A stretch of DNA of 64,000 bases from an uncultured Bacilli bacterium (GCA_944358705.1 CALVRR010000001.1:40050-104049); one strand, 5' to 3'; positions 35,370 through 58,148 are shown, numbered from the stretch's first letter. Notes: generated by a model from the letters alone, not told the origin. Numbers and translations: made by a program.

Positions 35370-37433
35370 TTGAAGAGACTAAATTTAAATAAAAAAGAGA
35401 AAATAGTTAATTATAATCAAATTATATCGAAAAGATTTCTTGTTTTTTTAGTTGTTCTTCTTATTTTATTTGGGGTTGTTGGTATTAAATTGTATTCTGT
35501 TATGATTGTTAAAAATTCGGATTATAAGAAGCAGTTAAAAGAACTTTCTTATACGAAAGTAGAGGGGACTAGTACTCCAAGGGGAAGAATTTATGATAGA
35601 AATTATAAAATTATTGTTGATAATAAGGCAATTAAAAGTATTACTTATGAAAAAGAAAAGAATGTTAGTACTAGTGATATGATTGAACTTGCTTATGAAG
35701 TGTCTCCACATTTGGAACTTTCTTATACGAAATTAACGGATCGAGCAAAAAGAGAGTTTTACTTGGCTAAATATCCAGAGTTATGTAATAAAAAAGTAAC
35801 CAAAAAGGAAAAAGAAAAAGTAACTACGGGTGAGATTAGTACTACGGATTTGGAAGAGTTAAAAATTGAGCGTATTACGGAAGAAGAGTTAAATAAGTTT
35901 ATGGAGAAAGATTTAAAGGCGGCTTATTTATATTATCTTATGAATCGTGGATATACTTATGATGAGAAGATTATTAAAGAAGAGGCAACGGATCAAGAAT
36001 ATGCATATATTGCGGAACATAATAGTGAACTTGCTGGTTTTAATACCAAGTTAGACTGGGAGAGAGTGTATCCTTATGGAGATACTTTTAAGAGTATTTT
36101 AGGAACGGTTTCTACGACTACGCAGGGATTGCCAGCGGAAGAGAAGAGTGAGTATTTAAAGAAGGGGTATGCTTTAAATGACCGGGTTGGTCTTAGTTAT
36201 ATTGAAAAAGAATATGAAGAGTATTTGCATGGAGAAAAAGCAGAGTATCAGGTTGTGAATTCCCATGAGTTGAAACTTGTAAAAGAGGGAAAACGGGGAA
36301 ATGATATTGTTTTATCTATTGATATTGAACTACAACAAGAGGTTGAGAGAATATTGACAGAACAAGTGTTGAAAGCAAAGAAAGAACCTAATACTGAATA
36401 TTACGATCATTCTAGTGTTGTGATTCAAGATCCTGATACTGGAGAGATATTAGCTATGGCTTCTAAACAGATTGTTGGAGATAAAGTGGTGGATAATACG
36501 ATTAGTATTTTTACTCTTCCTATTACTCCAGGATCTGTTGTTAAAGGGGCTTCTATGCTTGTTGGTTATAATACTGGAGCGGTAAAAATAGGAGAATACA
36601 TGGTTGATGAGTGTGTTAAGATTGCTGGAGCACCTGAGAAATGTTCTTCGGTTAATAATCTTGGAACGATTAATGATATTACTGCTTTAGCTAAGAGTAG
36701 TAATGTTTATCAGTTTAAAGCCGCTATTCGGGTTAATGGACAAGAATATTCTCGTGGTATGAAGCTTAATTTTAATCAAAAGGCCTTTGATACTTATCGT
36801 GATATGTATCATTCTTTTGGATTGGGTGTTGAAACTGGTATTGATTTGCCTGGAGAAGATGATGGTTATGGTGCTAAACAAGATACTAGCTCTGGTAATT
36901 TGTTAGATTTTGTTATGGGACAATATGAATCTTATACACCACTTCAACTTTCGCAATATGTTACTACGATAGCTAATAATGGTAGTAGGCTTACTCCGCA
37001 TTTATTGAAAGAAGTTCATGCTTCTACGGATGATTCTTCGTTAGGAAAGACAATTTTAACCGTAGAACGCCAGGTTTTAAATACGATTGATACGAAACCG
37101 GAGTATATGGCACGTGTTAAAGAAGGTTTTTATGCAGTTATGCATTCTAATGGCGGATATGGTCGTGGTTATATTGACGATAAATGGGATGCTGCTGGTA
37201 AAACGGGAACTTCTCAGAGTTTTGTTGATAATGATAACAATGGAATTATTGATACGGAAACAATTACTTCTTCTTTTGTGGGGTATGCTCCTGCGAATGA
37301 TCCAGTGATGAGTATCGTGGTTACTTCTCCAAATTCTTCGCATCCTAATTCTAGTATTGATTATGCAAGTTTAGTGACTTTGCATATTACTAAGGAAGTT
37401 ACGAATAAATTTTTTGAGTTGTATTATTCTTAA
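35370..37433 (+). CDS. Class B penicillin-binding protein (PBP2/PBP2B/SpoVD-type transpeptidase)
   Basis: TTG start after GAGGGA, N-terminal TM segment, PBP dimerisation region, SxxK (PGSVVKG), SxN (KSSNVY), KTG (GKTGTS). Confidence 0.9.
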   Translation: MKRLNLNKKEKIVNYNQIISKRFLVFLVVLLILFGVVGIKLYSVMIVKNSDYKKQLKELSYTKVEGTSTPRGRIYDRNYKIIVDNKAIKSITYEKEKNVSTSDMIELAYEVSPHLELSYTKLTDRAKREFYLAKYPELCNKKVTKKEKEKVTTGEISTTDLEELKIERITEEELNKFMEKDLKAAYLYYLMNRGYTYDEKIIKEEATDQEYAYIAEHNSELAGFNTKLDWERVYPYGDTFKSILGTVSTTTQGLPAEEKSEYLKKGYALNDRVGLSYIEKEYEEYLHGEKAEYQVVNSHELKLVKEGKRGNDIVLSIDIELQQEVERILTEQVLKAKKEPNTEYYDHSSVVIQDPDTGEILAMASKQIVGDKVVDNTISIFTLPITPGSVVKGASMLVGYNTGAVKIGEYMVDECVKIAGAPEKCSSVNNLGTINDITALAKSSNVYQFKAAIRVNGQEYSRGMKLNFNQKAFDTYRDMYHSFGLGVETGIDLPGEDDGYGAKQDTSSGNLLDFVMGQYESYTPLQLSQYVTTIANNGSRLTPHLLKEVHASTDDSSLGKTILTVERQVLNTIDTKPEYMARVKEGFYAVMHSNGGYGRGYIDDKWDAAGKTGTSQSFVDNDNNGIIDTETITSSFVGYAPANDPVMSIVVTSPNSSHPNSSIDYASLVTLHITKEVTNKFFELYYS

Positions 37434-37509
37434 AGCAAGATATGTATTATTTTGCTTTTTTTTAGTTTTTCTGTTATAATATACGTACTTTTCGAAAGGG
37501 GATTTTGTT

Positions 37510-38046
37510 ATGGGAGATCGTGATTGGTCGGATGATATCTATTTATTGCTTACTTCGATTGGTCATTATTTAAAAAATGGTATTCCAACGGATAAGCGTT
37601 CGATTCCTTTTACAGAACTGGATTTTTATTCTATTTCTAATTCTTCTCCTAGGGATTTATATCATTATTTACGAAATATGTCATCTCGAGAGAAGGTTCC
37701 TTATTATAAAGATTTATTGAAATATTTAAAACAATTTCCTGAACCTGTTACTTCTAGAATTGTTGACCGCCAATATTATAAAGGTCGTCCTTTATTATTG
37801 GTTGTTCGAGGAGGGGTTACTGTTCCTGTAAGATTTGATGATTTTGATCGAGTTTTTTCTATTTTAGAAGAAAAAAATATTCCAACTACTAAGAGTAATG
37901 TTATGACAGCTGTCACCAGACAAGCTTTACAGGAAGATATTTTTCCTATTTTAGGGTTAGAAAATAGTGATAAAAAAGTAGAAAAAGCTCCAGTTTTTGG
38001 TAATCCATATGTAAAAAAGATAAATAATGTTAGAAAAAGTGTTTGA
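37510..38046 (+). CDS. Hypothetical protein
   Basis: 178-aa open frame with RBS AAAGGGGA. No family recognised. Confidence 0.5.
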   Translation: MGDRDWSDDIYLLLTSIGHYLKNGIPTDKRSIPFTELDFYSISNSSPRDLYHYLRNMSSREKVPYYKDLLKYLKQFPEPVTSRIVDRQYYKGRPLLLVVRGGVTVPVRFDDFDRVFSILEEKNIPTTKSNVMTAVTRQALQEDIFPILGLENSDKKVEKAPVFGNPYVKKINNVRKSV

Positions 38047-38061
38047 TTTTAAAAAAAACTT

Positions 38062-38089
38062 TTGCTTTTTCTTTATTTTCTGATATAAT
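38062..38089 (+). promoter_or_regulatory. Promoter (TTGCTT, 16-nt spacer, TGaTATAAT) for rpmG
   Basis: Extended -10 TGATATAAT at 38081-38089. Confidence 0.5.
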
Positions 38090-38117
38090 ACCTATAGGCG
38101 TGTAAGGAGGGATAAAA

Positions 38118-38282
38118 ATGGCTAAAGAAGGAAAAAGACAAATGAAGACTCTTGTTTGTACTGAGTGTAAAAGAGAAAACTATAGAGTACCTAGAAATGT
38201 ACAAAATACTACGGAACGTCTTGAAATTAGTAAGTATTGTCCAAATTGTAGAAAACATACTACACATAAGGAAAAGAAATAA
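38118..38282 (+). CDS. rpmG: 50S ribosomal protein L33
   Basis: [54 protein letters not shown]: 54 aa with the CxxC...CxxC zinc ribbon typical of L33. RBS TAAGGAGGG. Below the ORF-track length cutoff. Confidence 0.9.
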
Positions 38283-38329
38283 AATAAGTTTATTACTTAT
38301 TTTTAATTTTATATAGGGAGTTGAGTTTA

Positions 38330-38887
38330 ATGATTAGTACAAATGATTTAAAGAACGGTATTACTATTGAGGTTGAAGGTGCCATTTATGTGGTTATGGA
38401 TACTCAACATGTAAAACCTGGAAAAGGTGCTGCTATTGTAAAAGCAAAACTTAAAAATTTAAGAACGGGTGCTATTATTGAAAAAACATTTAATGCAGGA
38501 ATAAAAGTTGCTACTGCTCATATTGATAAGCAATTAATGCAATATTTATATACGATGAGTGATGTTTATTATTTCATGAATATGGATACTTATGAGCAAT
38601 TAGAATTATCTAAAGATATTGTTTCTGATAATGCTAAATTCCTTAAAGAAAACTTAGAAGTATATATTACTATGTTTGAAGGGGAAGTATTAGGTATTGA
38701 TTTACCTGATAAAGTAGAACTTACTGTTACTCGTACTGAAGCAGCTGTAAAAGGTAATACTACTAATAATGCATTAAAAGATGCAGAAGTGGAAACTGGT
38801 TATACCGTACGTGTTCCTTTATTTATTGAAGAAGGAGAAAAAATTATTATATCTACTAGTGATGGTAAATATGTATCAAGAGCGTAA
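38330..38887 (+). CDS. efp: Translation elongation factor P
   Basis: MISTNDLKNGITIEVEG, VKPGKGAAIVKAKLKNLRTG and C-terminal VRVPLFIEEGEKI. Confidence 0.95.
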   Translation: MISTNDLKNGITIEVEGAIYVVMDTQHVKPGKGAAIVKAKLKNLRTGAIIEKTFNAGIKVATAHIDKQLMQYLYTMSDVYYFMNMDTYEQLELSKDIVSDNAKFLKENLEVYITMFEGEVLGIDLPDKVELTVTRTEAAVKGNTTNNALKDAEVETGYTVRVPLFIEEGEKIIISTSDGKYVSRA

Positions 38888-38914
38888 GCTCTTTTTTTTA
38901 TGAAAAAAAGAAGA

Positions 38915-39811
38915 TTATTCTTCTTCGATTTCTTTTAATAAATTTAAAAAGGTAAGAGATGCTTTTTTTAATTGTTTTTGTTTTAAATAAGTGGCTCCAA
39001 TTTGTCTTGGTGGGATAGTTGGAGTTGTTTTTATTTCAAAAAGCGTTTGTTCTTTTAAATCTTTTTTTAAAAATTCCTTGGTTGCATAGCCAATTCCTAA
39101 TCCTATTTTGGTAAATGCGGTTACTAAGGAATGACTCGCTAATTCCATTTCCGGAGATAACATGATATTGTTTTTTTCACAGAAGTCGTCTAAAAATATT
39201 CTTGTATTTGATCCTTTTGCTATTAGTATTAATGGATAGTTATTCATTTCTTTTAAAGGTATTGTTTTTCCTTTTAATTCTTTCCAATCTTTGCTTGCGA
39301 TAAAGCAGTCGTTAACTTCTTTTAGTTTTGTTTCTTTAAAATCTGAAGGTAATTGATAGGGTAGATTTAAAATAATAAAATCGATTAGTCCATTTCTTGC
39401 CTGGGTAATTAATTCAAAGGTAGGACTTGTAGAGATTTTTATTTTTATTCTTGGGTATTGTTCATGAAATTTTTTTATATATGGAAGAAGATATTTTCTT
39501 GTTAGAGTGTTACTTACTCCAATTGATAAAGTTCCATAGTCTAGGTTTAGTGTTTCTTGAAGAGTTTCTTCGGCATGTTCTATCATTTCTATTGCTGGTT
39601 TTATATTTTTATAAAAAGTTTCTCCTTCTTCTGTTAGACTAACTCCATATTTGTTTCTGATGAATAGAGTACATCCTACTTGGTCTTCTAATGTTTTTAT
39701 TGATTTACTTACGGCTGGTTGACTAATCATTAACTCATGAGCTGCTTTTGTAATGTTTTTGTTTTTTGCAACGCTATAAAAAGTTTTATATAATTCATAA
39801 TTTACATTCAT
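38915..39811 (-). CDS. LysR family transcriptional regulator
   Basis: N-terminal HTH FYSVAKNKNITKAAHELMISQPAVSKSIKTLEDQVG plus a LysR substrate-binding domain. Divergent from the operon that starts at 39935. Confidence 0.9.
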   Translation of the reverse strand: MNVNYELYKTFYSVAKNKNITKAAHELMISQPAVSKSIKTLEDQVGCTLFIRNKYGVSLTEEGETFYKNIKPAIEMIEHAEETLQETLNLDYGTLSIGVSNTLTRKYLLPYIKKFHEQYPRIKIKISTSPTFELITQARNGLIDFIILNLPYQLPSDFKETKLKEVNDCFIASKDWKELKGKTIPLKEMNNYPLILIAKGSNTRIFLDDFCEKNNIMLSPEMELASHSLVTAFTKIGLGIGYATKEFLKKDLKEQTLFEIKTTPTIPPRQIGATYLKQKQLKKASLTFLNLLKEIEEE

Positions 39812-39934
39812 ATGTTTTGCCCCCCTCAGTTATAACAATTTGTTATTTCTGGTATGAATAAAAAGTATTTTTATTATATTACAAACCCTTTTATAATACA
39901 AGTTGTTAGATGTGAAAGAAGAAAGGAGAGTTTT

Positions 39935-40777
39935 ATGGCATCTTTTGTTATTCACCATATTTCTGGTGAAGCGTTCTTAAATGAACTAGAAAAAGAGGGG
40001 GTAGTGTTATCAGATACAGAAAAAAAACAATTTTTACTAGGAAACTTAATTGTTGATTCTTCTAGAATAAGAAAACAACTTCCAGAAAACTTAAGTCTGG
40101 AAGAACAAAGAGCTTTTAAGAAGAAGTTAAGAGATGAAGTGCAAGAAGAAAAGAAAAGTACTCATTTTCGAGATGAAGATGATTATAAACTTTGTATTCA
40201 GGCACCTAATCTTTCTTCTTTTATCGAGAAGTATCAAGATCTTATTACAAAGGATTATACTGCTCTTGGTTATTTATATCATTTGTATGTAGATAAAATG
40301 TTTTTTAATGATTTGTTTCGTGATACTTTTGTCTGTTTAGATAAGGATGGAAATGAGACAAAATATATTGCAGATTTAGTTTCTATGCAAGTGAAAAAGA
40401 GTGGAGAAGTTTCTCCGGTAGAAGATTTTTGGAGTCATGACAGTAGTGTTAGTATTTATCATGATTATACAGTTATGAATAAGTTATTGTTAGAAAAATA
40501 TGGTACTTGTTTTGATGCGGAAAAATTATTAGAAAATCATGATACTACTTTTGTTAATCCTGGTATTTATGAAGTGGATTATCAGAATGTTACTAGTGTA
40601 GTTTCCAAAACAGCCGCTTATATTGGAGAATCTTATCAGGTTGAAGATAATTCCTTGTATGTTTTTGATCAAAGTAAAGTCGAAAGTTTTATTGAACAAG
40701 TAGCGAAAGGGTTTCTTTCTTCCTATCCAGAAGCTGTACCTAGTAAATTGGATGTAAAGGAGAATAGAAAATGTTAG
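39935..40777 (+). CDS. Hypothetical protein, possibly zinc-dependent phospholipase C-like (PF00882-like) metal hydrolase
   Basis: ATG at 39935 follows AAAGGAGAG. The pattern FVIHHI..., FLLGNLIVDS, KSTHFRDEDD, LGYLYHLYVDKMFF resembles Firmicute Zn_dep_PLPC family proteins as I remember them. Overlaps the next gene by 7 nt. Confidence 0.4.
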   Translation: MASFVIHHISGEAFLNELEKEGVVLSDTEKKQFLLGNLIVDSSRIRKQLPENLSLEEQRAFKKKLRDEVQEEKKSTHFRDEDDYKLCIQAPNLSSFIEKYQDLITKDYTALGYLYHLYVDKMFFNDLFRDTFVCLDKDGNETKYIADLVSMQVKKSGEVSPVEDFWSHDSSVSIYHDYTVMNKLLLEKYGTCFDAEKLLENHDTTFVNPGIYEVDYQNVTSVVSKTAAYIGESYQVEDNSLYVFDQSKVESFIEQVAKGFLSSYPEAVPSKLDVKENRKC

Positions 40778-41367
40778 AGATATTTTCTGCTTGTTGTGGT
40801 CTTATACAGAGTATTTTAATTTTGTTTAAGAGAAAAGAAAATTGGATTTTTTATTTGCTTAATATCCTTACTTTAACAATATTTTCTTTTACTGCTAAAT
40901 TATATGGAGATGTGATTGAAAATTTAGTTTATGTTGTTTTTGGATTTTTAGGGTTATTTACTTGGTATTCTGTTTCTGTTTCTAAAAAAATATTTGGAAA
41001 TGAAAATAACATTCGATACGCCAATTGGAAAGAACGAATATTTTATGTTTTTATGTTTTTATCTATTAGTGTAGGAATGTATTTCTTTTTGAAATCTACG
41101 GATGATCCATTTCCATTTTTGGATGCAATTACTACAGGAATGAGTTTTACTGCGACCTTGATGATGGCCTTTAAGAGAGTAGATTCTTGGGTAGTTTGGT
41201 TTGTGGATGATATATTAATGGCTTATGTTTATTTTTCTTTACCAGAGAAAGCAATTTATTTAATGGCTTTAAATATTATCTGGGTAATACTAGCGGTTGG
41301 TACTTTTTGGACTTGGCATAAAGAAGCAATAGGAAATGGGGATAGAAATGAAAGAAAAAAAGTTTAA
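40771..41367 (+). CDS. pnuC: PnuC family (nicotinamide riboside/nucleoside-type) transporter
   Basis: 198 aa, about 6-7 TM segments. ENWIFYLLNILTLTIF, LYGDVIENLVYVVFGFLGLFTW and WVVWFVDDILMAYVYF match the PnuC pattern. Substrate unknown. Confidence 0.65.
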   Translation: MLEIFSACCGLIQSILILFKRKENWIFYLLNILTLTIFSFTAKLYGDVIENLVYVVFGFLGLFTWYSVSVSKKIFGNENNIRYANWKERIFYVFMFLSISVGMYFFLKSTDDPFPFLDAITTGMSFTATLMMAFKRVDSWVVWFVDDILMAYVYFSLPEKAIYLMALNIIWVILAVGTFWTWHKEAIGNGDRNERKKV

Positions 41368-42706
41368 AGAATTGGAAATTATTTTAAGTGACTTTTCTTG
41401 TGACAAGAATTGTCCGTATTGTACTGCTAAAATTACTAAGTGGGAAGTGGTTCAAGATGATATTCATATGCTTAGTTTGTATGTTGGTCAATTAAAAGAG
41501 CTTGGGTATCAGTTTCATTATGTGACACTTGGTGGTAATGGAGAACCGACAAAACATTCTATTAAAAAATTAAGAGAGATTGTAGAGTTGTTTGATGATT
41601 ATGATATTCCGGTAAAGAGAGTATTAACTTCTGGCAATGTCTTTCGTGAAGAAGAAAGAGAAAAGTATGATCTTTTTACTTCTTATGGTTGGATATTTGA
41701 AGTTACTACGACTTCGATTGATAATGATTTGGATAGGAAAGTTTTGGGATACGATCATAATTATTTTCAAAGTGATGCATTTTCTAAGGCTAGGATTCGC
41801 TTAAATTATGTTTTGTTGAAAAGTAATTTTTCTTCGATGATTGATGAAGTACGGGAGTTTTTTAAGAGGTATCCTAATATTGAAACACTGGCTATTAAAT
41901 TGCTTAATGTGAATACCAAAACAGGTCTTGTGGATAATCCTCGTTCTTCTTGGATAGTAGAAAATGCTATTGCGAAAGAACAAAGAGAAGAAGTGAAGAA
42001 GCTTTTGGATCAGAACTTTACTTATTTAGGAGAAGCGTATGACACTTTTTCTTGGAAGACGGAAGATGGTCATGAAGTTTATTTTTCCTGGAAAAAGATG
42101 AATTATGGTTTTTCTGATTTGGTTTATTATGGTAATCGATTTGTGAATTATCAATTAGAAGAGGTTAGTCTTCCTTTTCTGCCTAAAATTTATTTTGCTT
42201 GTCAATTTCATAAGGAAATGTTAGATGATAAGTGCTTTACTTTGAAAAATGATTTTCGGGCGAAATTGATAGGGAAGGAAGAGGATTTTACTAATTTTAA
42301 TAATCATAGTTTTATTAAGAGTAGTGATGGGAAATTGTTGTATCAATATCTAGGACCATTTTATAATGAGAAGGCTAGTGATGGAGAACTTACTTCTACG
42401 GTATGTTGTGAGGTTGTCCAAACGGAGAATGATTTGATTGATAAATGTGATATTTTTATGGCTTATTTTGATTCTAAATTAAGTCCTGGTAGTATTACGG
42501 AACTTACCTATGCGTCTTTACAAAAGAAGAAAATCGTTATTTTTTATCAAGTGGAGGATAATATTTCTTATGAACTTAAGTCGTCTAATTGGTATCCTAT
42601 TGTATCGGCAAGACTTGTTGCTGGTAGTGAAAATGTAGTAGAGATTCCTGTTCGTGGGACGGATGAAGTTTGTGATTATTTTCGAAAGGGAAAGAAGTTA
42701 TGGTAG
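41348..42706 (+). CDS. Fusion protein: N-terminal radical SAM domain plus C-terminal nucleoside 2-deoxyribosyltransferase-like (SLOG/NDT-type Rossmannoid) domain
   Basis: CDKNCPYC (CX3CX2C; Cys18, Cys22, Cys25) and the LGGNGEP SAM-binding motif. C-terminal KIYFACQF ... DLIDKCDIFMAYFDSKLSPGSITELTYASLQKKKIVIFY resembles the NDT/Rcl pattern with the conserved Glu. Overlaps pnuC by 20 nt. Confidence 0.65.
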   Translation: MKEKKFKELEIILSDFSCDKNCPYCTAKITKWEVVQDDIHMLSLYVGQLKELGYQFHYVTLGGNGEPTKHSIKKLREIVELFDDYDIPVKRVLTSGNVFREEEREKYDLFTSYGWIFEVTTTSIDNDLDRKVLGYDHNYFQSDAFSKARIRLNYVLLKSNFSSMIDEVREFFKRYPNIETLAIKLLNVNTKTGLVDNPRSSWIVENAIAKEQREEVKKLLDQNFTYLGEAYDTFSWKTEDGHEVYFSWKKMNYGFSDLVYYGNRFVNYQLEEVSLPFLPKIYFACQFHKEMLDDKCFTLKNDFRAKLIGKEEDFTNFNNHSFIKSSDGKLLYQYLGPFYNEKASDGELTSTVCCEVVQTENDLIDKCDIFMAYFDSKLSPGSITELTYASLQKKKIVIFYQVEDNISYELKSSNWYPIVSARLVAGSENVVEIPVRGTDEVCDYFRKGKKLW

Positions 42707-43590
42707 TTTTAAGACTTGGAAAGATTAATAATGAAGAGCGAAAATTTATTCCTACTAGATTAGATATTTTAGAAGAATATTTGCAAGGTATGGAAGAAAT
42801 TGAAGAATATGAGTTGACGCAAACTTATCGTGATGGCTATAAATATCGTAGATATTGTGATCATGGGAATATGAAATATACTAGAAATCTTAAAATGGGT
42901 AAAGTTACCGATGTTGTAGAAATTGGTGAAGAGGAGTTTTTAGAAGTTTTGAAGGATACGAAAAAAAGTATTCGTAAGATTCGTAAATATTATCAAGATG
43001 GCGATTATGAAATTGATGTTGATTATTTTATGGAACCAGTTTCTATGATTATGGTTGAAGTGGCTAGTTTGGGTGCTCCTTTAGCTGATTATCAAGCACC
43101 GAAAGGATTTGTTGATGTTACTGGTAATAAAATATATGAAAATAGTAGTATTTATCAAGGAAGTATCTTGTCTAGTTCTACTATTATTGAAGGGACGGAT
43201 GCGGTAGGAAAAAGTACTACGGTTGATAGACTACTTTCTATGGGAATTCTTTGTAGAGAACGTTCTATGGATATGTTTTCTAAGTATATGGAGTTTACGG
43301 TACCTTTAGAAGAGAGGGTAGAACATTATTACGAATATTTAAAAAATCATGAGGAAAAAGTTATTTTTTTAGTAAATCATGATAAGATGGAATTGGAACG
43401 TAGAGTTTCTTTAAGAGATGTTATTAGTGAATTTGATAAAAAAGCATATGAATACAATCAACTTTATTTTGAAACTTATCAATATATGATGGAACATGAT
43501 ATGTTAGAAGGAAAGTTGTTTTTGGTCGATTGTACAAATTTAACATTCGAAGAACAAGTAGAGAAAGTAAAAAATATTATTATAAATTAG
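42700..43590 (+). CDS. Fusion protein: N-terminal CYTH-like domain plus C-terminal P-loop nucleoside/nucleotide kinase-like domain
   Basis: NNEERKFIP (ExExK-like; the first Glu position reads Asn) and IDVDYF...IMVEVAS are CYTH hallmarks. Walker A IIEGTDAVGKSTTV resembles thymidylate kinase or ribosylnicotinamide kinase. The ATG overlaps the upstream stop (ATGGTAG). Confidence 0.55.
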   Translation: MVVLRLGKINNEERKFIPTRLDILEEYLQGMEEIEEYELTQTYRDGYKYRRYCDHGNMKYTRNLKMGKVTDVVEIGEEEFLEVLKDTKKSIRKIRKYYQDGDYEIDVDYFMEPVSMIMVEVASLGAPLADYQAPKGFVDVTGNKIYENSSIYQGSILSSSTIIEGTDAVGKSTTVDRLLSMGILCRERSMDMFSKYMEFTVPLEERVEHYYEYLKNHEEKVIFLVNHDKMELERRVSLRDVISEFDKKAYEYNQLYFETYQYMMEHDMLEGKLFLVDCTNLTFEEQVEKVKNIIIN

Positions 43591-43591
43591 G

Positions 43592-44203
43592 ATGGTTTTT
43601 ATGATTTTTGCAACAAATAATAAAGGGAAATTAAAAGAAATTAGGGAGATATTTTCGGATTATGAAATACTATCTCTTTCCGATGTTGATCTTTCTATTG
43701 ATGTTTTAGAAGATCAGGATAGTTTTTTAGGAAATGCTACTAAAAAAGCGAAAGAGGTTTATTCTATTACTAATCAAGCATCTTTTGCGGATGACTCTGG
43801 TCTATGTCTTGATGCTTTTGATGGATGGCCTGGTGTTATGACTCATCGTTTTTTAGGAGAAGATGCTACGGATGAAGAGAGAAATCTAGCGATTATAGAA
43901 AAATGTAATGAGGTATCTAATCGTGATGCTTCTGTTGTTTGTCAATTGGTTTATTATGATTCTTTAGGAACTCCTATTGTTGGTACTGGAGTTTTAAAAG
44001 GTAAGATTGCTTCTTCTCCTCGTGGAGAAAATGGTTTTGGATTTGATCCTATTTTTGAACTTCCTAATGGGAAGACATTGGCAGAATTAACTGCAGAGGA
44101 GAAGAATCAATGTAGTGCTAGAAGTCTTGCAGCAATAGATTTAAAACAGAAGTTAGATACGCTTTTTCTTAACGATGGTGTAAGTGAAGTTCGTCATAAA
44201 TAA
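43592..44203 (+). CDS. rdgB: RdgB/Ham1 family non-canonical purine NTP pyrophosphatase
   Basis: FATNNKGKLKEI, NATKKAKEV, ADDSGLCLDAFDGWPGV, GFGFDPIF, CSARSLA. Starts 1 nt after the upstream stop. Confidence 0.88.
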   Translation: MVFMIFATNNKGKLKEIREIFSDYEILSLSDVDLSIDVLEDQDSFLGNATKKAKEVYSITNQASFADDSGLCLDAFDGWPGVMTHRFLGEDATDEERNLAIIEKCNEVSNRDASVVCQLVYYDSLGTPIVGTGVLKGKIASSPRGENGFGFDPIFELPNGKTLAELTAEEKNQCSARSLAAIDLKQKLDTLFLNDGVSEVRHK

Positions 44204-44261
44204 AAGTTTCTTGTATCTTTGGTTTAAATCCATTATAATATTTTACTAACAGGTGAAGAAT

Positions 44262-45356
44262 ATGGATTTTGAACATTACCACAAGATACTACCTTTATAT
44301 TGTACGGTTTGTGATATGATCCAACAACATCCGGATGGTATTACTGATTATGAATTAAAATCTTTATTACAGACGAAGGGATTTTCGTTTGATGATGAAG
44401 ATTTTTTTGGCGTTATTTCGATGTTACTTATCTCTGATGGGTGTATACAAAGGGATGATTATTGGAGCCGTGGTGCCGTTTATTCTTATATTAAAAATCC
44501 ACATTTACATGATTCTGCTTACTCTAGACATCATTATTCTTTTACGGTTGATGATAATGTTTCTGACAAGTGTTTTGTTGTTTTGGCCGATACCCATGTG
44601 GGACATCCAGAGTTTGAGGATTTTCGTATGTTAGATGGTATTTATTCTTTTGCGATTGGTGATGGAGCAGATAAATGTTTTCATATGGGGGACTTGTTTA
44701 CTGGAAAAATGGGAGATTGTTTTTCTAAAGAGGAGATGTTAGATCAACTCAATTCTTTTATTTCTTCTTATCCGAAGCCATATCCCTGGGAGATGCGTAC
44801 TTATGTTAATGTTGGAAATCATGATGAGTATCTTCACGGTTTTTTTCATCCAGATGTCAAAAAGGAAGAGCAACCATATCTTTATGATTTGAGAGGATTA
44901 AATACTTATCATCCAGACTTTTTTGTTATTCCTAGGGAAAGATTTCGAACTAAGTTTTCCAATATCGATATGCATTTTGGACATCGTTTGTATGTTAGTG
45001 GAATTCGTCCAGAAGTAAAATTATTTGCTCTTCAAGATATGAATGAAGAAGAGCGATGGTTGGATGAGCGATATGATGTTTTATGGTCTGGACATTTACA
45101 TAATGGATTTATTTATACTACGGATGTTCCCTGGGGAGATAGAAAGCAAATTCTTTTTTTAGGAGTTCCTTCTACTAGTAAATATAATTTAGGAGGCGTT
45201 GTTGCTTATCTTGCTCATTTACATTATGAAAATCAACGTGTTTCTACTATGGATGTCGATTTTTTGAAATGTGATAATAATTACCATATTACGAAGGAAG
45301 AAGGAGTTCACTGGGATTTTTCTGGAAATAATAAGGTTATTAAAAAATTATTATAG
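44262..45356 (+). CDS. Calcineurin-like metallophosphoesterase with an N-terminal extension of about 95 aa
   Basis: VVLADTHVGH, HMGDLF, NVGNHDE and SGHLHNG motifs. ATG at 44262 follows AGGTGA. Confidence 0.8.
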   Translation: MDFEHYHKILPLYCTVCDMIQQHPDGITDYELKSLLQTKGFSFDDEDFFGVISMLLISDGCIQRDDYWSRGAVYSYIKNPHLHDSAYSRHHYSFTVDDNVSDKCFVVLADTHVGHPEFEDFRMLDGIYSFAIGDGADKCFHMGDLFTGKMGDCFSKEEMLDQLNSFISSYPKPYPWEMRTYVNVGNHDEYLHGFFHPDVKKEEQPYLYDLRGLNTYHPDFFVIPRERFRTKFSNIDMHFGHRLYVSGIRPEVKLFALQDMNEEERWLDERYDVLWSGHLHNGFIYTTDVPWGDRKQILFLGVPSTSKYNLGGVVAYLAHLHYENQRVSTMDVDFLKCDNNYHITKEEGVHWDFSGNNKVIKKLL

Positions 45357-45449
45357 TTTTCTTTACTGTTAAATTTTTGTTTTGGTGTTTAGTATTTTTG
45401 TTATTTGTAGTATAATGTGATTGTGAATAGAATATAAGGAGTAATATAT

Positions 45450-47732
45450 ATGGCAAAAAGAAAACGTAAAAAACAATCAAAAAAAGGTTTTGAATATAAA
45501 TTAGAAGTTTATGGACTTATTTTGTTGTTGGCTTCTATTTTAGGAATTGGTAAATTTGGACCAGTTGGCAAAATGATTTCTTCTTTTGCTTTGTTTTTGG
45601 TTGGGTCTATTTATATGGTATTGTTAGTAGTCTTTTTTGTGGTAGGAGCTTATTTATTAGTGAAAAGAGAATGGCCAGATTTTTTTTCTACGAAGTTAAT
45701 AGGACTTTATGTTTTCGTCATTGGCTTTTTAATTATTATGCATCAGGACTTTGTATTACAAAATGATGGTAATATGATGCTTATTTTTCGAACGACGATT
45801 GATCAGTTGGTTGCTTCTTTTAATGGAATTATGAATACTGGTATTTTAGAAGATTGGTATGCCGTTGGTGGAGGTATTATTGGTGGAATTTTTGCAATAC
45901 TTTTTGATAAGTTGTTTTCTTATACTGGTATGCAAATTGTTGCCTGGGTATTTATGATTACCGGATTTTGTTTATTTACCGGATTTTCTATTATTGGTTT
46001 TGTTAAAGATAACTTAGAAAAACAAAAAGAAAAACTTGCTCATGCAAGAGAGTCTAAGGCAGAAAAAGCTAGTAAAAAAGCCGTTATTATCAGCAATGGT
46101 GATGAGGAAGAGGAAGAAGAAAAAGAAAAAGATAAACATATTAAAATTACTAGTATTGATGAACTTACCAAGGTTCCTGTAAAAGATAGTAATGAGGTAG
46201 CAGACGTTTCTAAAGATACGAAAAAGGAAGCTCCACTGGTACAAAATCATAGTTATCAGTTACCTCCGATTAGTTTATTAAATCAACCAAAGAAAAAGCA
46301 GAAAGAAACGGATGGGGCTGCTATTGAGAAGAATATTGAGATTTTAGAGAAAGTTTTGAAGGATTTTAAAATTGTTGGTAAAGTTGTAGAAGTACATATT
46401 GGACCTACGGTTGCTCAATACGAGTTAGAGATTGCTAGTGGTACTAGGGTTAATAAAATTACTAGTATTAATCGTGAAATTGCTTTGGCACTTGCTAAGA
46501 AGGATGTTCGAATTGAAGCTCCGATTCCTGGTAAGAATACTGTAGGAATTGAGTTTGCCAATGATGTTGCGACTCCAGTTAGTTTTTATGAGATTATTAG
46601 TAGTAAGCAGATGATGAATGCTCCAGAGAAAAAACTTATGGTTCCTCTTGGAAAGAGTATCATGGGAGATATTGGTGTGTGTGAGATTAATAAAATGCCT
46701 CATATGTTAGTTGCGGGTACTACTGGTAGTGGTAAATCTGTTTGTATTAATGGAATTATTTGTTCTATTTTGATGCGTGCGAAACCTGATGAGGTGAAAC
46801 TAGTTATGGTCGATCCTAAGGTTGTTGAACTTTCAGTTTATAATGGAGTTCCTCATTTGATGTGTCCTGTAGTTAGTGATCCTAAAAAAGCAGCGGTTGC
46901 TTTAGCAAAGATGGTTGCTGAAATGGAGAGGCGTTACGAAACGTTTAGTGAAACGAAAACAAAGAATATTGAATCTTATAATGCTTATATTGATAAGTGG
47001 AACGAAGAACATAAAGCGGATGATGTGAAAAAAGCTAGACTTCCTTATATTGTTGTTATTATTGATGAGCTTGCGGATTTGATGATGGTTGCTGCTAAAG
47101 AGGTTGAAGATTCGATTTTAAGAATTACGCAAAAAGCACGTGCTGCAGGAATTCATTTGATTGTTGCAACCCAAAGACCATCTACGGATGTTATTACTGG
47201 TTTAATTAAAGCAAATATTCCATCTCGTATTTCTTTTGCAGTTGGATCTGGAATTGATTCTCGTACGATTTTGGATATGACGGGTGCCGAAAAATTGCTT
47301 GGTAAAGGAGATATGTTATTTTTACCAATCGGTGTTAATTCTCCAACTCGTATTCAAGGATCTTTCATTACGGATGATGAGATTAAGAAAATTATTGACT
47401 TTACCGTGGAGCAACAAAAAGCTCAGTATGATGAGTCTTTGATGAATTTAGATGCTGTTGATCATAATGTCAGTAATGCTAGTGGAACGGAATTTGGGGA
47501 TGCTGCTAATGATGAGGATCCACTTTATAATGATATTGTACAGTTTGTTATTGAAACGCAAAAAGCTAGTGCTTCGCTTTTACAAAGAAGATTTAAACTT
47601 GGTTATAACCGGGCTGCTAGACTTGTTGATTTATTAGAAGAACGTGGTATTATTGGTCCTGCGAATGGTTCTAAACCTAGAGAAGTCTTAGTACAATTAG
47701 ATAGTGTAAAAGAAGAAGCAGGGGATGAATAA
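45450..47732 (+). CDS. ftsK: DNA translocase FtsK/SpoIIIE
   Basis: 4-5 N-terminal TM segments, acidic linker, motor domain with Walker A GTTGSGKS and Walker B VVIIDELADL, and a gamma winged-helix LLQRRFKLGYNRAARLVDLLEERGIIGP. Confidence 0.95.
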   Translation: MAKRKRKKQSKKGFEYKLEVYGLILLLASILGIGKFGPVGKMISSFALFLVGSIYMVLLVVFFVVGAYLLVKREWPDFFSTKLIGLYVFVIGFLIIMHQDFVLQNDGNMMLIFRTTIDQLVASFNGIMNTGILEDWYAVGGGIIGGIFAILFDKLFSYTGMQIVAWVFMITGFCLFTGFSIIGFVKDNLEKQKEKLAHARESKAEKASKKAVIISNGDEEEEEEKEKDKHIKITSIDELTKVPVKDSNEVADVSKDTKKEAPLVQNHSYQLPPISLLNQPKKKQKETDGAAIEKNIEILEKVLKDFKIVGKVVEVHIGPTVAQYELEIASGTRVNKITSINREIALALAKKDVRIEAPIPGKNTVGIEFANDVATPVSFYEIISSKQMMNAPEKKLMVPLGKSIMGDIGVCEINKMPHMLVAGTTGSGKSVCINGIICSILMRAKPDEVKLVMVDPKVVELSVYNGVPHLMCPVVSDPKKAAVALAKMVAEMERRYETFSETKTKNIESYNAYIDKWNEEHKADDVKKARLPYIVVIIDELADLMMVAAKEVEDSILRITQKARAAGIHLIVATQRPSTDVITGLIKANIPSRISFAVGSGIDSRTILDMTGAEKLLGKGDMLFLPIGVNSPTRIQGSFITDDEIKKIIDFTVEQQKAQYDESLMNLDAVDHNVSNASGTEFGDAANDEDPLYNDIVQFVIETQKASASLLQRRFKLGYNRAARLVDLLEERGIIGPANGSKPREVLVQLDSVKEEAGDE

Positions 47733-49462: not shown

Positions 49463-50176
49463 ATGGCTACACCACATATAGAAAGTAGTTTAGAAGATAT
49501 TGCAGAAGTAGTACTAATGCCAGGAGATCCATTACGTGCGAAATATATTGCTGAAAAATTTTTAACGGATGTGAAGTTAATTAATACCGTTCGTAATATG
49601 TTTGGTTATACTGGATATTATAAAGATAAGAGAATTACTGTCTTTGCTTCTGGTATGGGAGTTCCTAGTATCGGAATATATTCTTATGAATTGTATAAGT
49701 TTTATAATGTAAAGAAGATTATTCGAATTGGTACTAGTGGTTCTTTTCATAAAGATGTAAAAATATTAGATGTCATTTTATCTACAGGAGCTTATTGTAA
49801 AAGTTATTTTGATCAGTTACTGGATAATCAAGATATCAATTATGTTGAAGCAAGTCACTTATTAAATCAAACTATTGAAAAAGTTGCAAATGATGCACAT
49901 ATTCCTTTAAAAATTGGAAAAACTATTACTAGTGATGTATTTGATTTATATAGTGATAGTGAAGATGTGTTTAAAGCTAATTTTCCAGGAGATGATTATT
50001 TAGCTGTAGAGATGGAAGCTTTTGGATTGTTTTATATAGCTAAAAAATTAGGAAGAGAAGCTAGTTGTTTGATGACTGTTGTAGATTCTTTTTATGACAA
50101 ACGAAGTCTTACTAGTGAAGAGAGAGAAAAGTCATTAGATCAAATGATTCAGTTAGCATTAGATGCAGTAATATAA
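49463..50176 (+). CDS. deoD: Purine nucleoside phosphorylase, DeoD type
   Basis: MATPHIESSLEDIAEVVLMPGDPLRAKYIAEKFL, GMGVPSIGIYSYEL, VEMEAFGLFYIA. Confidence 0.9.
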   Translation: MATPHIESSLEDIAEVVLMPGDPLRAKYIAEKFLTDVKLINTVRNMFGYTGYYKDKRITVFASGMGVPSIGIYSYELYKFYNVKKIIRIGTSGSFHKDVKILDVILSTGAYCKSYFDQLLDNQDINYVEASHLLNQTIEKVANDAHIPLKIGKTITSDVFDLYSDSEDVFKANFPGDDYLAVEMEAFGLFYIAKKLGREASCLMTVVDSFYDKRSLTSEEREKSLDQMIQLALDAVI

Positions 50177-57587: not shown

Positions 57588-58148
57588 ATGAGAAAAATAA
57601 CTTATGTTACGGGAAATTGGTCGAAAATATTAAGTGCGAAACAAATATTGGAACCTCTTGGTATTGAAGTTTCTAATGTTAAGATGGAAACTACAGAAAT
57701 TCAGGCGGATACAGTGGAAGAAGTCGCAATGCATTCTGCGAAAGAAGCAAGTGATAAATTAAAATGTAGTGTATTAAAAAATGATACAGGATTATATGTG
57801 GAAGCTTTAAGAGGTTTTCCTGGTCCTTATACTCATTATGTTGATGAAAAACTTGGTGAAGATGGGATATTAAAACTTTTAGAAAATGTGGAAAATAGAA
57901 ATGCTTGTTTTATTGAAGCGTTTGCTTATTGTGAGTATGGAAAAGATCCTATTGTTTTTAAATCTATTACGAAAGGTACTATTGCTAAAGAAAAGTCAGG
58001 AAAGTATGGTTGGAGTTGGGATTTTATTTTTATTCCAGATGGTTATGATAAAACTATGGGAAACTATCCAGATGAAGAAAGGTGTATGGTTTGGAATACC
58101 GATGCTTATTATGAAATAGCTAAATATTTCAGTGATAAGGATAAATAG
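57588..58148 (+). CDS. Ham1/ITPA family non-canonical NTP pyrophosphatase (second copy, divergent subtype)
   Basis: ITYVTGNWSKILSAKQIL, EIQADTVEEVAMHSAKEA, NDTGLYVEALRGFPGPYTHYV, YGWSWDFIFIPDGYDKTMG. Confidence 0.8.
   Translation: MRKITYVTGNWSKILSAKQILEPLGIEVSNVKMETTEIQADTVEEVAMHSAKEASDKLKCSVLKNDTGLYVEALRGFPGPYTHYVDEKLGEDGILKLLENVENRNACFIEAFAYCEYGKDPIVFKSITKGTIAKEKSGKYGWSWDFIFIPDGYDKTMGNYPDEERCMVWNTDAYYEIAKYFSDKDK

Follow-up and report, generated by a model that had tools for sequence, protein, structure and literature searches.

A gene on the plus strand of a 64,000-nucleotide stretch of DNA from an uncultured Bacilli bacterium (GCA_944358705.1 CALVRR010000001.1:40050-104049; the whole stretch is called the window below) encodes a radical S-adenosylmethionine (SAM) domain, abbreviated rSAM, fused to a domain of the nucleoside 2-deoxyribosyltransferase (NDT) superfamily. 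Taken with a PnuC-family nucleoside facilitator encoded immediately upstream, we read this rSAM-NDT protein as part of a transporter-coupled nucleoside salvage module that is analogous, but not homologous, to the queuosine salvage system QueT/QueK/QueL, an interpretation we favor while giving it a little less than an even chance. It builds on direct observations of what the two domains are, which catalytic residues they carry, how the three parts are obligately linked and how rSAM paralogs are fused to nucleotide-centered partners.

The gene lies within an unbroken open reading frame (ORF) at 41336-42706 (+). Translation more likely starts at the second methionine (41348; MKEKK) than at 41336, because a GGGGA Shine-Dalgarno-like element lies 5 nt upstream of the former and a database protein with 99% identity (P0001) is 452 aa long; the resulting product likewise has 452 aa (41348-42706, +), and all residue numbers are counted from this start. 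A search of 5.8 billion proteins returned 190 relatives and no informative name, the sole name, carried by one protein, being '4Fe-4S cluster-binding domain-containing protein'. About 80 of these relatives are full-length fusions (45-99% identity), and the rest are stand-alone rSAMs of ~275 aa. An AlphaFold2 (AF2) model of the full fusion protein, built with an alignment of 100 homologs, shows two domains (pLDDT 93, pTM 0.90). Because single-sequence Pfam matches fell below gathering thresholds, the domain calls that follow rest on the family profile searched against the PDB, on this confident model and on Foldseek.

The N-terminal rSAM domain spans residues 1-278 (41348-42181, +). Its motif CDKNCPYC (residues 18-25; nt 41399-41422, +) provides the [4Fe-4S] ligands Cys18, Cys22 and Cys25, and GGNGEP (residues 62-67; nt 41531-41548, +) is the SAM-binding motif. 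An earlier note on this DNA had called the region radical SAM and had made the call depend on conservation of the cysteine triad; C18-x3-C22-x2-C25 and GNGEP proved invariant in the alignment of 100 homologs, down to 40% identity, as did ~35 further positions. The modeled fold is a partial (beta/alpha)6 TIM barrel, and Foldseek searches of the N-terminal domain against the PDB matched SuiB (1.3e-6), anSME, BlsE, HydE, BioB and PFL-AE, all at probability 1.00, as well as QueL, at ~10-16% identity, with the sugar-tailoring rSAM BlsE giving the widest coverage. The Pfam profile Radical_SAM (PF04055) scored 16.0 bits against the window protein, below its gathering score of 29.5 bits (E=0.014), which some homologs or paralogs do reach (P0123, 33.8 bits; L073, 32.6 bits); the sub-threshold score reflects a divergent branch, not another fold. 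Sequence and model together confirm the domain as radical SAM.

Below the superfamily level the domain resists classification. An NCBIfam scan of 100 family members gave weak matches to generic rSAM models (HxsC, Mmp10, TrsS, NrdG2, viperin, QueE), all far below cutoffs, so that no named rSAM family could be assigned; a single-sequence NCBIfam scan of the fusion protein yielded nothing meaningful, and in profile searches against PDB sequences no rSAM reached a meaningful E-value. HMMER, run exhaustively over 1.84 billion (1.84e9) representative proteins, recovered 177 clusters at E ≤1e-3; the clade is thus small and sharply delimited.

The C-terminal NDT-like domain (residues 279-452; 42182-42706, +) begins with the strand PKIYFACQF (residues 279-287; KIYFACQF from nt 42185, +) and contains the nucleophile motif SPGSITELTYA (residues 379-389; nt 42482-42514, +); its key residues, with roles assigned through the alignment to BcmB and MilB, are Tyr282, Glu360, Ser379-Pro-Gly381 and the nucleophile Glu385. 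Nuc_deoxyrib_tr (PF05014) scored 18.8 bits against the window protein (gathering 28.8, E=1.8e-3), and Nuc_deoxyri_tr2 gave a similarly sub-threshold 2e-3. Both Pfam profiles that the earlier note had predicted, Radical_SAM and Nuc_deoxyrib_tr, therefore did match, but neither at its gathering threshold. A profile of 23 diverse C-terminal domains, searched against the PDB, matched BcmB (4.3e-9), MilB (2.7e-5), BlsM (2.2e-4) and classical NDTs (~5e-3). Foldseek paired the modeled domain with BcmB (4jen_C, TM 0.76) and MilB (TM ~0.6), both at probability 1.00, and phage NDTs match it in BFVD. These profile and model comparisons confirm the NDT-superfamily assignment, with a flavodoxin/Rossmann-like fold, in line with what the note had proposed for this region and expected of a structure search.

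The 23 NDT-like domains all keep the IYFA tyrosine, the SPG glycine and the ITEL glutamate, and at least 90% of them the SPG serine. HMMER aligns the family motif S-[PV]-G-x-[IV]-x-E-L-x-[WY]-A to SPGTH(I/V)EIGWA of BcmB and MilB. Glu385, the residue of ITELTY that had been singled out at the outset, thereby corresponds to MilB E103, which was mutated to inactivate MilB (PMC4081090), and Ser379 and Gly381 align with the phosphate-binding MilB residues Ser97 and Gly99. The family strand KKVYFAGKF pairs with KRVFLAAPF of BcmB, which puts Tyr282 at the position of MilB Phe17. Three independent studies agree that this position sets sugar specificity: the F17Y substitution flips the preference of MilB from cytidine 5'-monophosphate (CMP) to its deoxy form (dCMP), DNPH1 carries Tyr24 there, and the sole natural ribo-specific NDT carries Phe (PMC4081090, PMC10603095, PMC7308715).

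BcmB, MilB and BlsM (PDB 4JEN, 4JEM, 5VTO), N-glycosidases of CMP or hydroxymethyl-CMP (hmCMP), are thus the best relatives of the C-terminal domain in both sequence and structure, sharing its Rossmann-like fold, the nucleophile motif S-P-G-x-x-x-E-[IL]-x-[WY]-A and the strand [FY]-[FL]-A-[GA]-x-F. In contrast to these enzymes, the C-terminal domain has the invariant Tyr at the Phe17 position and an insertion of ~25 residues (GPFYxExASxGxxTSTxC) that holds a nearly invariant Cys. Furthermore, the P-F-(R/K) motif with which MilB and BcmB recognize the hydroxymethyl group is replaced by [GC]-[KQ]-F-[NH], where the window protein has His and its relatives mostly have Asn, and the linked ThyA-like genes of MilB and BcmB (MilA/BcmA) have no counterpart, no ThyA-like gene being present in ~80 loci; the partners here are rSAM and PnuC. 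Lacking the Phe, the Arg/Lys and the linked ThyA-like gene, the domain falls short of what defines a MilB/BcmB-type CMP/hmCMP glycosidase.

The active site instead recalls DNPH1 (Rcl), a 2'-deoxynucleoside 5'-phosphate N-hydrolase whose Y24, S98 and E104 match Tyr282, Ser379 and Glu385 (PMC10603095) and which also acts on non-canonical nucleotides. DNPH1 gave no direct significant sequence match and was absent from the PDB match lists, which argues for likeness of the active site rather than orthology; unlike the fusion, DNPH1 is a eukaryotic stand-alone dimer without an rSAM or transporter partner. Judged by its residues, then, the C-terminal domain is a catalytically complete member of the NDT superfamily, nearest to the CMP N-glycosidases and bearing a DNPH1-like Tyr/Ser/Glu signature. 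This signature predicts, by inference, a substrate that is 2'-deoxy or 2'-unsubstituted and 5'-phosphorylated.

The fusion is one version of a wider arrangement. In a genomic survey of one genome per GTDB species, in which ORFs were called, their products clustered and neighborhoods mapped, we obtained 80 loci. The commonest arrangement, seen in 48 of them (~48 species represented by gut metagenome-assembled genomes, MAGs), has consecutive and mostly overlapping genes for PnuC, the NDT-like protein (~170 aa) and rSAM (~275 aa). The separate NDT-like gene was checked by translation and tblastn, and the median gap between it and the rSAM gene in these split pairs is -2 nt. The fused rSAM-NDT form is in the minority, with 11 loci including the window. 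A PnuC gene lies directly upstream on the same strand in every locus with both rSAM and the NDT-like domain (59/59; median gap -21 nt); of the 17 loci that have an rSAM paralog but no NDT-like partner for it, none has PnuC. When homologs of the window PnuC were sought, cassette-type PnuCs alone were retrieved, at a minimum of 56% identity. In the window, PnuC (40771-41367, +; PF04973 1e-33) overlaps the start of rSAM-NDT with its stop, and rSAM-NDT in turn ends across the start codon of the gene that follows (ATGGTAG); these overlaps indicate translational coupling. The PnuC partner, the minority status of the fused form and the Tyr-for-Phe (2'-deoxy) signature were all absent from the earlier note.

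Gene fusions add a second line of evidence. NDT-rSAM fusions occur in the order opposite to that of the window (P0121, P0123), and P0057 (703 aa) unites in one protein rSAM, the NDT-like domain and a homolog of the kinase-like X296 encoded next downstream in the window. In P0486 (347 aa), which the PnuC homolog search revealed, PnuC is fused in frame to an NDT-like domain in two independent samples (L091, 6001-7044; L092, 233-1276), with a Metallophos gene downstream; this fusion places the glycosidase at the transporter exit. Following Rosetta-stone reasoning, these independent fusions suggest a single molecule as the common target of transporter, glycosidase and rSAM. Paralogs of the rSAM point the same way: one group (L070-L078) consists of cytidylate kinase-rSAM fusions (Cytidylate_kin, PF02224 7e-14; 492 aa), another paralog has a C-terminal PRA-PH/MazG-like domain, and two more multi-domain relatives (P0150, P0172) carry extensions without a Pfam match. 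Every identified fusion partner of the clade handles nucleotides, leaning to cytidine, which argues for nucleotides as the substrates of this clade; that the nearest relatives of the C-terminal domain are CMP glycosidases agrees with the cytidine leaning. The suggestion in the earlier note that the two domains share a nucleoside or nucleotide is strongly backed by the split genes of ~48 species, by fusions in both orders, by P0057 and by the paralog fusions. Its statement that no characterized enzyme has this architecture also holds: no Pfam or NCBIfam family matches at threshold, the PDB relatives are related at the superfamily level, and the literature searched is silent.

The fusion of an rSAM to a glycosidase-like domain also invites a housekeeping explanation, in which the NDT-like domain just clears the by-product 5'-deoxyadenosine and the true rSAM substrate has nothing to do with nucleosides. 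This by-product is an inhibitor of rSAM enzymes, normally removed by methylthioadenosine/S-adenosylhomocysteine nucleosidase, and a fusion would put the clearing activity beside its source. Yet a PnuC::NDT fusion with no rSAM nearby would be out of place under this explanation, as would the perfect co-occurrence of the NDT-like domain with PnuC; with a substrate that has no 5' oxygen, the conserved 5'-phosphate-type Ser-x-Gly would serve no purpose, and the Tyr signature disfavors the ribo sugar of 5'-deoxyadenosine. We therefore regard this explanation as extremely improbable.

The closest known logic to the salvage module we propose is that of queuosine and queuine salvage, in which gut bacteria without de novo synthesis use the importer QueT/QrtT, the N-glycosidic hydrolase QueK and QueL, a small single-cluster rSAM lyase (PMC11130926). 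Both systems would combine an importer, an enzyme acting on a glycosidic bond and remodeling by an rSAM, but their parts are non-homologous (ECF/QPTR versus PnuC, and IUNH versus the NDT fold), and queuosine is a ribonucleoside, whereas the Tyr signature of the C-terminal domain predicts a deoxy sugar. No queuosine genes (queK/queT/tgt linkage) were found in the loci mapped. Homology of the rSAM to QueL was rejected, as 6P78 came at Foldseek rank 47 (TM 0.54, E 1.4e-3, 12% identity) and gave no sequence match at E<10; we keep the analogy. A second parallel is offered by PnuC-NadR and PnuT-thiamine kinase, where, as in our module, a Pnu facilitator is co-transcribed with an enzyme that traps its cargo. 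There the trap is a kinase, while here it would be a glycosidase/transferase-like domain with an rSAM, in one lineage fused to the transporter itself. The parts belong to superfamilies already known and the scheme as a whole has an analogue, but neither the fusion nor the three-gene module is described in Pfam or NCBIfam families, solved structures or the literature searched.

We infer salvage as the direction, an order of steps, a radical chemistry and a cargo. An exogenous nucleoside would enter through PnuC by facilitated diffusion, as expected from what is known of the family. The NDT-like domain would then trap it: Glu385 would attack C1' to give a covalent (deoxy)ribosyl-enzyme intermediate, and the N-glycosidic bond would be broken or exchanged. 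From Tyr282, which stands where other enzymes have Phe, we predict a sugar that is 2'-deoxy or lacks a 2' substituent in some other way, and from Ser379-x-Gly381 a 5'-phosphate, which the co-transcribed X296, a kinase with a triphosphate-tunnel metalloenzyme (TTM) domain, could add; HAM1, encoded next, would return over-phosphorylated nucleoside triphosphate to the monophosphate. The rSAM, stably docked on the glycosidase, would use its single [4Fe-4S] cluster to cleave SAM reductively, giving a 5'-deoxyadenosyl radical that would tailor the base or sugar of the same nucleoside or nucleotide, so that the product could enter normal nucleotide or cofactor metabolism. The leading candidates for the cargo would be a nicotinamide-riboside-like pyridine nucleoside and a cytosine-type 2'-deoxynucleoside or nucleotide. 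The accessory genes (TTM-kinase, HAM1, metallophosphoesterase and DHH) all handle nucleoside phosphates.

Several points weigh against the salvage scheme. The rSAM domain resembles no characterized rSAM beyond the superfamily level (~15% identity, with generic NCBIfam matches), and for that reason its chemistry is a guess. The Tyr rule was derived from MilB, DNPH1 and classical NDTs and is applied here to a divergent branch. The predicted 5'-phosphate site and the PnuC::NDT fusion appear to pull apart, the former implying a phosphorylated and the latter an unphosphorylated substrate. No rSAM lies within 6 kb of the PnuC::NDT fusion, and the glycosidase may accordingly act without a radical step in that lineage. 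No riboswitch or other ligand-specific element was found upstream, a search of positions 37000-46000 of the window giving nothing at E up to 1, and the same search of eight diverse loci gave tRNAs only. Finally, PnuC facilitators are bidirectional, which would permit export of a product.

If PnuC does work outward, the pair could be biosynthetic, yielding a modified nucleobase or nucleoside that serves as antimetabolite, signal or cofactor precursor, much like MilB/BlsM and MilG/BlsE in peptidyl-nucleoside antibiotic pathways, and PnuC would release this product. The nearest solved relatives of the C-terminal domain (BcmB, MilB, BlsM) and the presence of BlsE among the best rSAM matches agree with such a role, and vitamin release has also been proposed for Pnu facilitators (PMC5749112). 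However, the cassette contains no glycosyltransferase, ThyA-like hydroxymethylase or peptide-forming genes, and the determinants of the CMP/hmCMP glycosidases are replaced (Phe by Tyr; Arg/Lys by His in the window protein and, in relatives, mostly by Asn). The carriers, moreover, are uncultured gut MAGs with AT-rich, housekeeping-type contexts, and two related complete chromosomes in the set measure just ~1.5 Mb. Biosynthesis for export consequently seems quite improbable to us.

A different reading of the import route assigns the module to nicotinamide adenine dinucleotide (NAD) metabolism. PnuC would import nicotinamide riboside (NR) or nicotinate riboside, and the NDT-like domain would be a glycohydrolase or base exchanger of NR or nicotinamide mononucleotide (NMN) that feeds nicotinamide to salvage, like yeast Urh1/Pnp1; the rSAM would handle a modified pyridine nucleoside or ribose, and the kinase and a NadM-like nucleotidyltransferase (NTase) would finish NAD synthesis. 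The window PnuC (72.1 bits) and that of an alphaproteobacterial locus (60.7) pass the cutoff (42.45) of TIGR01528, the nicotinamide riboside transporter model, although this model may lump NR transporters together with the thiamine (PnuT) and riboflavin (PnuX) branches of the family. A divergent NadM-like NMN adenylyltransferase occurs in 25 loci (NF002243 8e-14, TIGR01527 1.6e-12), and NrtR-like regulators, which combine a Nudix-like domain with a winged helix, occur in up to 16 loci of other lineages; in one (L024, 9353-11026) a complete NrtR-like regulator, including the NrtR winged helix (2e-14), is joined in a single protein to the TTM-kinase. The loci resemble in this respect the nadR-pnuC-nrtR clusters known in streptococci (PMC2330246), which also have NrtR-type regulators and an NMN adenylyltransferase-like NTase nearby, and the CofE-like ligase of 19 loci could amidate the nicotinate carboxylate. 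These genes point to nucleotide or NAD-type metabolism, but their NTase and NrtR matches are far under family cutoffs, the NTase and the kinase sit in different locus types, and pentose pathways, too, are under NrtR-family regulators. Both NR and NMN carry a ribo sugar, while the invariant Tyr282 would be expected to shut out a 2'-OH, and NR salvage has no known or needed radical step. We thus consider the NAD version unlikely, though less so than the other alternatives.

The same Tyr282, together with Ser-x-Gly, matches the signature of enzymes for 2'-deoxynucleoside 5'-phosphates and allows a further possibility, that the module supplies deoxyribosyl units. The rSAM would dehydrate a ribose hydroxyl of a nucleoside imported by PnuC, in the manner of viperin, AprD4 or ribonucleotide reductase (RNR), and the Tyr-type NDT would move 2'-deoxyribosyl(-5-phosphate) to other bases; deoxynucleotides would then arise independently of RNR or in addition to it, with HAM1 clearing the deoxyinosine and deoxyxanthosine triphosphates (dITP, dXTP) formed from hypoxanthine and xanthine. 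NDT-based salvage of deoxynucleosides in reduced genomes has precedents in Lactobacillus and in Borrelia (BB0426). Co-location of HAM1 in 17 loci, paralogs fused to cytidylate kinase (Cmk; supply of CDP/CTP) and to a MazG-like domain (conversion of dNTP to dNMP), the coverage of BlsE in the structural search and the nearly invariant Cys of the NDT-like insertion would all suit it. On the other hand, we have no evidence for carrier genomes without RNR, one SAM spent per deoxynucleotide is costly, and there is no specific likeness to RNR or to viperin, which lies outside the top 50 Foldseek matches; transglycosylation by dNMP glycosidases, moreover, has not been seen (PMC7308715). Deoxyribosyl supply therefore strikes us as improbable. 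In its boldest form the rSAM/NDT pair would produce 2'-deoxyribosyl units by radical-SAM chemistry, the rSAM deoxygenating the sugar of the imported nucleoside or nucleotide and the NDT redistributing deoxyribosyl-5-phosphate among bases, which would give reduced-genome gut bacteria an RNR-independent deoxynucleotide supply; in a weaker version the pair would carry out a new kind of radical tailoring on a nucleoside from diet, host or microbiota that these lineages depend on. We see only a slight chance that this proposal is right.

Viperin bears on a last alternative, in which the rSAM would make or destroy a chain-terminating nucleotide, while non-canonical nucleotides would be cleared by HAM1 and the DNPH1-like domain, in defense or in sanitation of the pool. 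Viperin and the prokaryotic viperins are small nucleotide-acting rSAMs with an association to kinases, and the present clade includes paralogs with a Cmk fusion, though its matches to viperins are weak profile ones. PADLOC reported pVip ('viperins associated with kinases') at 5.7e-6 and 24 bits, and NF038283 weakly matched 18 of 100 family members (best 2.8e-5). The paralog system of L070-L078 does include a true viperin-like rSAM (2.3e-28) along with the Cmk fusion, CYTH domains and an Apyc1-like metallo-beta-lactamase (MBL) hydrolase, and DNPH1 is itself a sanitizer of the nucleotide pool (PMC10603095). Nevertheless, every viperin match of the family is far below cutoff (180 bits for NF038283), viperin structures do not appear among the top 50 Foldseek matches, and the strict tie to a nucleoside importer would be left unexplained. 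The neighborhood is one of housekeeping rather than a defense island, and a search of 2.9 million viral contigs (IMG/VR) gave one match, on a 416-kb contig with the same PnuC cassette. Viperin identity was accordingly down-weighted on account of the low scores, the absence from the top structural matches, the non-defense context and the transporter linkage, and we judge this role very improbable. More generally, the housekeeping context, the near-absence from viral contigs and the lack of a meaningful PADLOC match for the module lead us to favor metabolism over defense.

If the salvage reading is right, a strictly conserved transporter, glycosidase and rSAM set in housekeeping regions points to a specific exogenous nucleoside that is taken up and remodeled, and naming this nucleoside could reveal a currency of gut cross-feeding and a growth factor for isolating the carriers. 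The PnuC::NDT fusion would represent an unreported way to trap the cargo of a Pnu facilitator, by glycosidic cleavage instead of phosphorylation. A small, distinct rSAM clade whose partners handle nucleotides (NDT-like, cytidylate kinase, MazG-like) is also a good place to look for new radical nucleotide chemistry, and the module probably hides such chemistry on a nucleoside along with a testable nutritional dependency.

The operon around rSAM-NDT begins with up307 (39854-40777, +), a 307-aa product without a Pfam, NCBIfam or PADLOC match whose motifs (H..., GNL..D, HF, GYLYHLYVDK) suggest a metal-dependent hydrolase; its homologs lie upstream of pnuC in 11 loci. On the other strand, divergent from the operon, lies a LysR-type gene (38915-39811, -; Pfam HTH_1 5e-20, LysR_substrate 2e-31) that is its probable regulator. 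In the fused-lineage loci L006 and L008-L015, and also in L051, such a gene directly precedes the cassette and is divergent each time. A consensus scan of the LysR/operon intergenic region placed a promoter-like TTGCAA-17-TATAAT at 39765-39794 (+; 10/12 matches); since the total count of such sites was not above shuffle expectation, this one is no more than suggestive.

Downstream, the ATG of X296 (42700-43590, +; 296 aa) overlaps the rSAM-NDT stop. X296 joins a TTM/CYTH triphosphate-tunnel domain to a P-loop kinase-like domain with the Walker A sequence GTDAVGKS. Its AF2 model (pLDDT 94.7) matched SaTTM (6.5e-7), NE1496 (TM 0.6), the kinase+TTM protein AtTTM1 (rank 33) and Gmk (rank 38) in Foldseek; structure and fold search thus identified the two domains but not the substrate class of the kinase. 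Full-length X296 (~290-310 aa) directly follows rSAM in ~19 loci. The next gene encodes a HAM1/RdgB non-canonical nucleoside triphosphate pyrophosphatase (43592-44203, +; PF01725 1e-54; TIGR00042 160 bits versus a cutoff of 145), and HAM1 adjoins the cassette in the 17 loci already mentioned. A second HAM1/RdgB paralog, of archaeal type (PRK14821 3.5e-52), is encoded 13 kb further downstream in the window (57588-58148, +), and the cassette copy may for this reason be specialized. The probable last gene of the operon (44253-45356, +) encodes a metallophosphoesterase-like protein of 367 aa; the window protein has no Pfam match, but a homolog in L006 (29% identity, E 1e-40) carries Metallophos, and the gene is found in 13 loci.

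Other lineages surround the module with different genes. The CofE-like ligase of 19 loci is accompanied by a DUF5662-like protein that is at times fused to DHH. In the alphaproteobacterial and Gastranaerophilales loci (L019-L061), the NadM-like NTase, a CofE-like protein of the F420_ligase family (~397 aa, with a large insertion) and the DUF5662-like protein form a conserved upstream trio, and a porin-like gene follows rSAM. No F420 genes were seen near the CofE-like ligase in these loci.

All carriers are uncultured MAGs from animal or human gut, except L063, which is not obviously from gut. Their records are labeled Bacilli/Mycoplasmatota/Erysipelotrichaceae, Alphaproteobacteria/Enterousia, Gastranaerophilales and 'Clostridia', and the two related complete chromosomes were noted above. 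The carriers look like reduced-genome gut lineages (RF39-like, RF32-like) that largely resist cultivation, presumably through nutritional dependencies not yet known. L063 (3688-5530), a contig of Candidatus Uhrbacteria (CPR, the candidate phyla radiation), encodes two tandem rSAM paralogs of 320 and 304 aa without an NDT-like domain or PnuC. The L070-L078 system, from RF39-like Bacilli MAGs, likewise has neither; in L073 (4900-10300) its gene order is CYTH, viperin-like rSAM (NF038283 2.3e-28), LysR, cytidylate-kinase::rSAM, Apyc1-like MBL hydrolase and CyaB-like CYTH, and it looks like a pathway of cytidine-nucleotide modification or signaling. One 'Tenericutes' MAG (CANRVY01) contributed both L012, with a fused PnuC cassette, and L080, with a separate paralogous rSAM of 281 aa, indicating that two systems can coexist in one genome. 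The best viral structural matches in BFVD, both unnamed, were UPI001E6AD6B5 (467 aa, E 3.5e-9) and UPI001CE4C174 (379 aa, 3.7e-8); both align to the two-domain model over ~340 columns and could be two-domain rSAM proteins of phages.

Within the window (1-64000), Pfam annotation placed the operon among housekeeping genes (EF-P, L33, PBP2, FtsK, DnaG, sigma-70), and no RNR, tgt or NAD biosynthesis genes turned up in these annotations. Nearly all ORFs above 150 aa lie on the plus strand, the G+C content (GC) is ~30%, and each 2-kb bin has a positive GC skew (0.12-0.41), a pattern that fits a leading-strand segment from a chromosome of the low-GC, Bacilli/Mycoplasmatota-like type. Four kilobases downstream of the operon, a DeoD-type purine nucleoside phosphorylase gene (49463-50176, +; TIGR00107 241 bits, above cutoff) is, by its sequence match, a further nucleoside-salvage gene near the operon.

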